Below are positions 287-314 of a DNA stretch of 6,408 nucleotides, piece after piece; position 1 is the stretch's first letter; the number at the start of each line of letters is the position of its first letter. Source of the stretch: a virus; IMG/VR virus record IMGVR_UViG_3300014685_000009. One strand, given 5' to 3'. A program made the position numbers and the translations under genes. The notes beneath the pieces were generated by a model. It was not told the DNA's origin and did no database searches. It was given only the letters and a program-made list of their open reading frames with translations.

Positions 287-314
287 TTTTAACATATTAT
301 ACATTATGCGAAAT
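287..314 (-). other. dif-like XerC/XerD recombination site with a canonical 6-bp spacer
   Basis: The minus strand reads ATTTCGCATAA-TGTATA-ATATGTTAAAA. E. coli dif is GGTGCGCATAA-TGTATA-TTATGTTAAAT, so the spacer is identical. The XerD arm matches 9/11. The XerC arm is identical to the arm of the site at 2767-2777. Confidence 0.7.

Follow-up and report, generated by a model that had tools for sequence, protein, structure and literature searches.

Xer sites in the phage genome

The window, by which we mean the whole 6408-nt stretch of DNA analysed here, holds a circular phage genome of 6303 nt followed by a terminal redundancy of 105 nt. All phage genes lie on the minus strand except two divergent plus-strand ORFs at 1969-2560 (Table 1). 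The closest named phage is Acinetobacter phage M02, whose gII is 47% identical; a near-identity DNA search of the phage collection with the window gave no match, and a first scan of genome contigs using gII alone gave none either. The replication module ends with the gV-position ORF, and the structural module (3156..6263 plus 1-260) is bounded at one side by a dif-like site, here termed S3, and at the other by a second site, A. The 128-aa ORF at 2174-2560 (plus strand), which diverges from gII, shows similarity to a C-terminal domain found in gII/gX replication proteins (Pfam G2P_X_C, 7.8e-4; PHROG replication proteins, 4e-10), an unusual partner for a regulator-position gene.

Table 1. Genes, Xer sites and conserved motifs of the window
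Feature	Position	Strand	Evidence or remark
gII replication initiator	646..1923	-	Pfam Phage_CRI 8.8e-38, G2P_X_C 7.3e-16
gV-position ORF, 106 aa, last replication-module gene	314..634	-	phrog_4994; synteny with M02 ORF 5596-5904
Structural and assembly module	3156..6263	-	Gene order as in M02
gVIII	6263..6021	-	Pfam Phage_Coat_B 0.003, under the curated cut-off
gIII	5893..4634	-	Structural/assembly module
gVI	4633..4343	-	Pfam DUF2523
gI/Zot	4346..3156	-	Pfam Zot
S3, 28-bp duplex dif-like core	287..314	-	Sequence; pattern search; conservation in relatives
S3 XerC arm ATTTCGCATAA	314..304	-	Reverse complement of plus strand
S3 central region TGTATA	303..298	-	Reverse complement of plus strand
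S3 XerD-like arm ATATGTTAAAA	297..287	-	Reverse complement of plus strand
Conserved 12-mer ATCAATAACTTA	275..286	-	Directly 3' of XerD-like arm, ahead of first structural-module ORF
Related 12-mer AACAAAGACTTA (family consensus ATCAAAGnCTTA)	332..343	-	About 18 nt upstream of XerC arm, within gV CDS
29-aa single zinc-finger ORF MTQFMYKCKKCGKQFSVHAQYCVHYYQCK	171..260	-	First gene after S3; weak Pfam zf-C2H2 match
Hairpin site A, 11-nt spacer: ATTTCGCATAA TGTAGTCCAGA TTATGTTACAT	2745..2777	-	Repeat analysis, folding
Hairpin site B, inverted, 7-nt spacer: ATGTCGCATAA TGCAGAT TGATGTTAAAT	2679..2707	+	Folding

S3 reads ttttaacatattatacattatgcgaaat on the plus strand. The gV-position ORF stops with TGA at 316..314, the A of the stop codon being base 1 of the XerC arm. 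A search of the window with a dif-type pattern, allowing up to three mismatches, found S3 as its sole match, with 0.01 expected from 200 shuffles. The TGTATA spacer occurs also in the dif sites of E. coli K12, Acinetobacter ADP1 and P. aeruginosa (table in PMC2731167). Folding of the S3 region as a single strand gave no structure (z = +0.3), so that S3 can act solely as duplex DNA, and a single-strand hairpin at S3 was ruled out. Sites A and B, at 2679-2777, do fold as single-stranded phage DNA (dG -26.5 kcal/mol, z = -7.1). A preliminary description of this DNA had reported the dif-like site overlapping the gV stop codon, its canonical 6-bp spacer as in E. coli dif, and two hairpin sites with non-canonical spacers; all three points were confirmed, the first on minus strand 314..287.

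Site A and S3 have 18 nt in common (CTGATTTCGCATAATGTA). A 21-nt direct repeat, 20/21 identical, at 300-320 and 2763-2783 spans the XerC arm, 4 nt of spacer and the flanking CTG of both sites. A 46-aa ORF (2907..2767) stops with TAA within the XerC arm of site A, paralleling the end of gV at the edge of S3.

Conservation of S3 among relatives

S3, or a hybrid of it with dif, follows the replication module directly in all six IMG/VR relatives found by gII (79-100% identical) and in M02, while the surrounding DNA is 65-77% identical or unalignable; S3 itself has the same position in L001, L003 and L005-L007. The stretch between gV and the small ORFs is thus kept at S3 rather than drifting among relatives, a comparison for which the preliminary description had called. 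The S3 pattern was found in at least 119 IMG/VR inovirus contigs, which are not independent samples, with 128 sites among the matches listed. It also occurs in the species-representative genomes of Acinetobacter haemolyticus, bouvetii, baylyi and guillouiae and in one Acinetobacter MAG, as well as in three small MAG contigs that are probably mis-binned. S3-bearing contigs L162, L166 and L167 are binned in MAGs labelled Gordonia, Bacteroidetes and Neisseria; the first two are clearly Acinetobacter-type inovirus contigs (gII 80-83% identical), which makes the binning doubtful, and L167 has an S3-like site without phage genes.

In maps of about 115 contigs one architecture is near-universal: site A, site B inverted, regulators, replication module, S3, structural module, site A. 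The replication module upstream of S3 may be either gII/gV or a non-homologous Rep. Full-length prophages retrieved through their host flanks, without using S3, all carry S3; among these, L161 has a spacer changed by 1 nt (TTTATA) and L110 a different XerC arm. The L161 copy (reverse complement, about 1840) lies in an array ending with replication module and dif; this difference from the dif spacer should prevent the two sites from recombining, so that L161 would have a naturally 'locked' form of S3.

Conservation extends to positions beyond the search pattern. The XerD-like arm has three principal forms, ATATGTAAATA (46 contexts), ATATGTTAAAA (43) and ATATGTCAATT (14). Compared with the XerD arm of dif, TTATGTTAAAT, this arm matches at 9/11 positions in the window and at 7-9/11 in relatives, and position 1 is always A where dif has T. 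This T-to-A change is kept in more than 100 diverged phages.

Integration through the folded hairpin

Nine contigs have in common a host-left flank, …GGGATTAGTTnAAACTATATAAT followed by T(G/A)TTCG(T/C)ATAA. In eight of them the flank continues into a site-A-type spacer, then the loop, then site B, an order that XerC-mediated recombination of a folded attP(+) with dif would create; the ninth, L158, continues into an intact dif, TATTCGTATAA TGTATA TTATGTTAAAT. The eight occupied junctions represent roughly five or more independent events, judging by spacer types. Host-left DNA joined to the XerD-like arm of S3 was found in none of the nine contigs and at none of the 128 S3 sites among the matches listed, so that S3 is not an entry site for naive dif, or only rarely so.

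In L125 and L150 the XerC arm of site A abuts dif, the primary right-end product of CTX-type integration. The phage as a whole has the features of a CTX-type IMEX, namely an inverted pair that folds to a forked hairpin and both types of junction. To judge by these junction sequences, this phage family enters dif via the folded A/B hairpin, leaving a left junction that is non-functional and restoring an authentic dif where the array ends on the right. Two further possibilities were considered and rejected: pairing of S3 with site B, or hairpin integration into S3, would place host-left DNA or a structural-module end before S3, an arrangement seen at 0 of 128-134 sites among the matches listed.

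An IS30-family insertion sequence (341-aa transposase) occupies the place of hairpin site A in two contigs carrying the window's own phage (L003 at about 115-1202, L002 at 1-76), abutting window position 2742. Its insertion at site A destroys the folded attP. Its 46-nt end is present in 32 IMG/VR contigs.

Exchange of S3 with chromosomal dif

We scored as host-form dif any site in which …TGTATA TTATGTTAAAT is followed by non-phage DNA (n = 14). All 14 have the TGTATA spacer, as does S3. The left partner is the 3' end of a replication module in 11 of the 14, a structural-module/site-A end in two and host-left DNA in one; the replication-type partners belong to at least eight different module types. 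In the 11 cases, therefore, the left half of S3 runs on into the spacer and XerD arm of the host dif and into host genes.

The window's own phage provides one of these fusions. Contig L002 is 99.96% identical to the window over 2742..288; where the spacer meets the XerD arm, its sequence changes to TTATGTTAAAT and then to unrelated DNA. Its host-form dif, ATTTCGCATAA TGTATA TTATGTTAAAT, agrees with S3 at 26/28 positions, differing solely at XerD-arm positions 1 and 11; the preliminary description had asked for a comparison with the dif of the host, and the spacers proved identical. L150 has a right flank homologous to the one in L002 but, as left partner, a window-type site-A flank; since a junction of the other type thus leads into homologous DNA, the L002 flank is host DNA and not an assembly error. 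Acinetobacter dif sites (ADP1; the intact site of L158) have the same spacer and XerD arm as the host-form site, and the XerC-arm core of S3, TTCG(C/T)ATAA, is identical in the ADP1 dif, the intact L158 dif and the L002 host-form site. In A. baumannii-type hosts the right flank of dif recurs in nine records and leads to genes for a UvrA-like ATPase and an RND efflux permease.

Several arrays show the units involved. L155 runs from host-left DNA through a hairpin junction, B and a replication module to dif and host-right DNA, a solo replication-only element of 2.8 kb. L075 and L160, parts of one 22-kb contig, have host-left DNA, two full units 99.9% identical to each other, and a terminal replication module abutting dif. 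In L105 three tandem replication modules are split by hybrids of the S3 left half with the site-A spacer, which hairpin integration into a replication-dif junction would produce. Arrays retaining S3 beside dif are common, so the reaction between S3 and dif is not fast. These junctions make it very probable that S3 is a genuine site of Xer recombination and has undergone exchange with dif.

Two candidate junctions and one candidate strain pair were discarded. The flank GGAAAACCGAAATAAAGCTATACATTACACATAGTTATTTTTACC, taken as host-left DNA, had suggested many duplex-type attL; it occurs within circular phage contigs (e.g. L043), where it forms the 3' end of a replication module not of the gII type. 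A. baylyi DSM 14961 appeared to join host-left DNA to S3, with an XerC arm (GATTCGTATAA) equal to the ADP1 dif arm; the DNA upstream of S3 is a replication module, encoding a Rep-type protein and a 104-aa gV-position ORF. Finally, L155 was compared with L075, L160 and L122 for strains set apart by one S3 x dif event alone, but these proved to be different phages at 83-97% identity.

Exchange of modules at S3

BLAST of the window against all loci gave 101 short homology islands over S3, in 97 loci. Homology stops at the outer edge of the XerC arm (window 312-314) in 96 of these islands, and in most it begins at 167-178, the end of the first downstream ORF. L104 and L140 (91-98%) and L121 (95-97%, over the parts present) have the window's structural module in common, losing homology exactly at 314; L007 has the window's replication module in common (90-93%), losing homology at 275.

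Clustering of the sequences on either side of 105 S3 sites gave 45 upstream and 48 downstream clusters in 73 combinations, with three four-gamete cases. Where a pair of clusters has only the replication side in common, divergence sets in at +17 to +20 of the site in 17 of 33 pairs; where only the structural side is in common, it does so at 0 to +12 in 34 of 52. These divergence points place the exchange within the core formed by the XerC arm and spacer. As read from these breakpoints, S3 is the crossover point for phage module exchange.

Proposed mechanism

S3 is probably an internal duplex Xer site whose XerD side has been weakened. We think it fairly likely, from the junctions and breakpoints above, that it serves to trim arrays, excise phages and shuffle modules, as follows. 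S3 is a direct repeat of the array-terminal dif, with 17 bases in common, and the two would recombine by XerC-led exchange. XerD would be handicapped by the invariant T-to-A change beside its cleavage position and by the degenerate outer arm; every dif, cer and psi site known to us has TTATG at the start of the XerD arm. The reaction would consequently be slow, with XerC leading as in CTX-type and VGJ-type elements, which would explain why arrays with S3 beside dif are common.

The outcome would depend on how the array ends. In an array ending with a complete unit, S3 x dif would drop the structural module as a non-replicating circle and leave an RS1-like replication-only element abutting dif. 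If the array ends with a replication module, S3 x dif would excise a complete circular genome with S3 regenerated, and in the reverse reaction a replicative form would insert beside a resident replication module. Recombination of S3 with S3 between co-resident phages would swap replication and structural modules. For the mobilization of CTXphi in Vibrio cholerae, VGJphi or TLCphi supplies a duplex Xer site; the present phage would in effect have its own in cis.

The A. baumannii XerCD/FtsK system is canonical, needing identical central regions and activation of XerD by FtsK, and its XerCD deletes DNA between direct dif repeats with a common central region. Gel-shift and suicide-substrate cleavage assays have been used on A. 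baumannii Xer sites (reagents in bioRxiv 10.1101/2024.04.09.588662).

Parts of the scheme admit other routes. Some of the right ends in which a replication module abuts dif could have arisen by hairpin integration of a pre-formed RS1-like circle, so that the sequences do not fix the direction and frequency of S3 x dif events. Short-homology recombination over the 17 identical bases of the crossover is a possible alternative to site-specific exchange. The XerD-like arm is poorly conserved (7-9/11, three main variants), and XerD may not bind there. S3 may benefit the phage; it might also be kept partly for another reason, as the T-to-A change gives rise to a TATAAT and S3 stands a short way before the first gene of the structural module.

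The preliminary description had offered S3 as evidence of two integration or excision routes, or as a scar of past Xer recombination. The first proposal holds in part: because S3 has exchanged partners with chromosomal dif (11 of 14 host-form sites), the phage has a second Xer route, although S3 is apparently not its primary attP. As to the second, S3 has indeed exchanged with dif, but 'scar' is too weak a term for a site kept in more than 100 diverged phages.

Alternative explanations

The TATAAT just mentioned belongs to a broader alternative, in which S3 is kept mainly as a transcription or translation control element of the structural operon, its likeness to dif an inherited relic and the junctions the outcome of occasional recombination in a conserved island. 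The arm sequence TTAAAA could serve as a -35 box, 26 nt separate S3 from the first structural start codon downstream, S3 takes up the greater part of the 53 nt from the gV stop to this codon, and both a 12-mer and the zinc-finger ORF are conserved along with it. A promoter scan did yield one promoter-like match with the arm as -35 box, but shuffled sequences led us to expect 1.8. A promoter, moreover, has no need of an 11-nt XerC arm with an exact dif spacer, and the S3 left half in 11 of 14 dif sites, with breakpoints inside the core, fits site-specific exchange better than 17-bp recombination. We regard this explanation as improbable.

Use of S3 as a duplex attP in the manner of VGJphi and TLCphi, the replicative form entering naive dif via S3 in parallel with the hairpin route, was put forward in the preliminary description and is quite unlikely. 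The central region is identical to that of dif and the XerC arm is good; the right-end junction of a replication-module XerC arm with dif is what such integration would give, and products lying between two active sites would re-excise and possibly be under-sampled. The matching left junction, host-left DNA with XerC arm, TGTATA, ATATGT... and structural genes, is nevertheless missing from all nine host-left contigs and from the 128-134 S3 sites among the matches listed, and all eight occupied host-left junctions, admittedly a small sample of roughly five or more independent events, have the hairpin site-A spacer. The common arrays with S3 beside dif argue that such prophages are stable enough to be detected.

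Multimer resolution is another role that one duplex Xer site could play on a small circular replicon, with S3 acting like cer or psi on the double-stranded replicative form and the dif junctions being by-products. Acinetobacter plasmids often bear Xer sites, and the conserved 12-mers flanking S3 could be accessory sequences; yet an accessory region of about 180 bp (PepA/ArgR/ArcA type) is not evident, the only conserved element upstream being a 12-mer within gV. Rolling-circle replicative forms are not known to require Xer resolution, and the constant place of S3 at the module boundary and the arrays ending in replication modules would be left unexplained, making this role very unlikely. Chance resemblance or an assembly artefact, which has the AT-richness of the region in its favour and nothing else, is effectively refuted by the expectation of 0.01 per window and by the same position in more than 100 diverged genomes.

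Conserved elements flanking S3

Although outside the search pattern, the 12-mer ATCAATAACTTA is kept in nearly all of the 113 distinct contexts of the S3 matches listed. The upstream motif ATCAAAGnCTTA is found before most S3 sites, in coding and non-coding contexts alike. Among the matches listed, the first ORF after S3 has a CxxC...H...C motif at 121 of 134 sites. These ORFs encode 29-47 aa with a single classical finger, CxxC-x12-H-x3/4-C, and form two subfamilies, YKCKKCG...HFYxC and VECPKC...FHMSKC; examples are window 171-260 (minus strand), L001 161-274 and L168 at about 730-820 (minus strand). S3 and the zinc-finger ORF together make up the homology island found in 97 loci, in otherwise unrelated phages.

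The zinc-finger protein could be a DNA-binding or Xer-accessory factor. More speculatively, and we would call this a long shot, S3, the 12-mers and the zinc-finger gene (29-47 aa, in about 90% of relatives) would be a self-contained, phage-controlled Xer switch: the finger protein would bind at or near S3, license XerC/XerD without FtsK and excise the whole phage from a hairpin-integrated array, as an XafT-like activator of unrelated fold. Such a switch, if real, would turn irreversible CTX-type lysogeny into a reversible state and drive both the emergence of replication-only satellites and module shuffling.

Comparison with known Xer-exploiting elements

The reading of S3 as an internal duplex site added to hairpin integration can be set against the known systems. 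As in this phage, CTXphi/RS1 has an inverted dif-like pair with long unequal spacers whose (+)-strand fold is the real attP; integration is by XerC at dif, with dif regenerated on the right; tandem arrays include replication-only elements; and rolling-circle production requires a downstream replication module. In the RS1-CTX array of NC_015209, however, XerC-arm-like sites occur at the element ends only (451, 3176, 10084), and no dif-like site lies between rstB and cep, so CTXphi is without a counterpart of S3. The present phage has instead a canonical site with a 6-bp spacer at the boundary of replication and structural modules, and its replication protein is of the Ff gII type, not RstA. With S3 at the module boundary, replication-only units are derivable from the phage itself and an excision route is available in cis.

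VGJphi resembles S3 in having a single duplex dif-like site on the replicative form, and XerC-led exchange is plausible for S3. In VGJ-type sites the homology of the central region to dif is confined to the XerC side, whereas S3 matches the dif spacer over all 6 bp; and the VGJphi site serves primary integration, which S3 is not seen to do (0/8 occupied host-left junctions). TLCphi, a satellite-like element at dif that aids CTXphi excision, likewise has a duplex site with a sub-optimal XerD side. S3, in contrast, retains a recognizable XerD-like arm, and XerD-first exchange is not indicated; the DUF3653/XafT domain that would mark a TLC type was matched by none of the 10 window ORFs scanned against Pfam, and the small zinc-finger ORF is unrelated to it.

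The gonococcal genetic island, 57 kb long, has an authentic dif at one side and a directly repeated, imperfect copy of dif at the other; it can be lost through XerCD yet is stably kept. It is not a phage, and its second site lies at the element end, whereas S3 is internal to the phage. This island is listed as a TLC-class relative (PMC4246890). In V. cholerae, an adjacent VGJphi or TLCphi site lets CTXphi excise, with the interval up to dif (PMC4246890).

In the same host genus, the pdif sites of Acinetobacter plasmids border exchangeable modules, and recombination of compatible sites forms and resolves cointegrates. They differ from S3 in their alternating orientation, varied spacers and lack of cassette excision, S3 being directly repeated relative to dif and having the chromosomal spacer. 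For the filamentous prophages of A. baumannii, two papers describe tandem copies and flanking replication modules and guess at XerCD, with no site analysed; we found no published description of a hairpin attP together with an internal duplex dif-like site at a module boundary. The combination of a hairpin and a duplex Xer site is widespread among inoviruses of Acinetobacter.

Current classes of Xer-exploiting elements rest on the use of a folded single strand (CTX) or of a single duplex site (VGJ, TLC, GGI), and CTX-type integration is deemed irreversible except where an adjacent element contributes a duplex site. In Acinetobacter, a large and clinically relevant group of filamentous phages has both kinds of site in one 6-kb genome. 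The model proposed for S3 offers a testable account of the origin of RS1-like satellites and of mosaic phage genomes, and S3 is a natural XerD-arm variant (ATATGT...) with which to ask how Xer sites escape FtsK control.

Other observations at dif

The reported 'complete circular genome' of M02 (L001, GenBank OQ693633) contains a 137-nt duplication at 1-137 and 5817-5953, consisting of the gV end, XerC arm and spacer, and at 5955-6243 about 290 nt of A. baumannii chromosome from the right of dif. The entry is a mis-circularized end of a prophage array, not a replicative form, and warns annotators that a terminal replication module and adjacent host DNA can be mis-assembled as a 'circular' phage.

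Host DNA to the right of dif in L002 (2657-8348) encodes two proteins of the tyrosine recombinase family (448 and 531 aa), followed by ORFs of 782 and 152 aa. This recombinase-bearing DNA in the host of the window's phage may be another mobile element parked at dif. In L158 (391-7589) and L154 (reverse complement, from 6479) the DNA immediately to the right of intact or host-form dif belongs to a different inovirus, whose Zot-like and gVI-like genes are on the opposite strand. This points to a second class of phages exploiting Xer in these hosts, one that leaves dif on its left.
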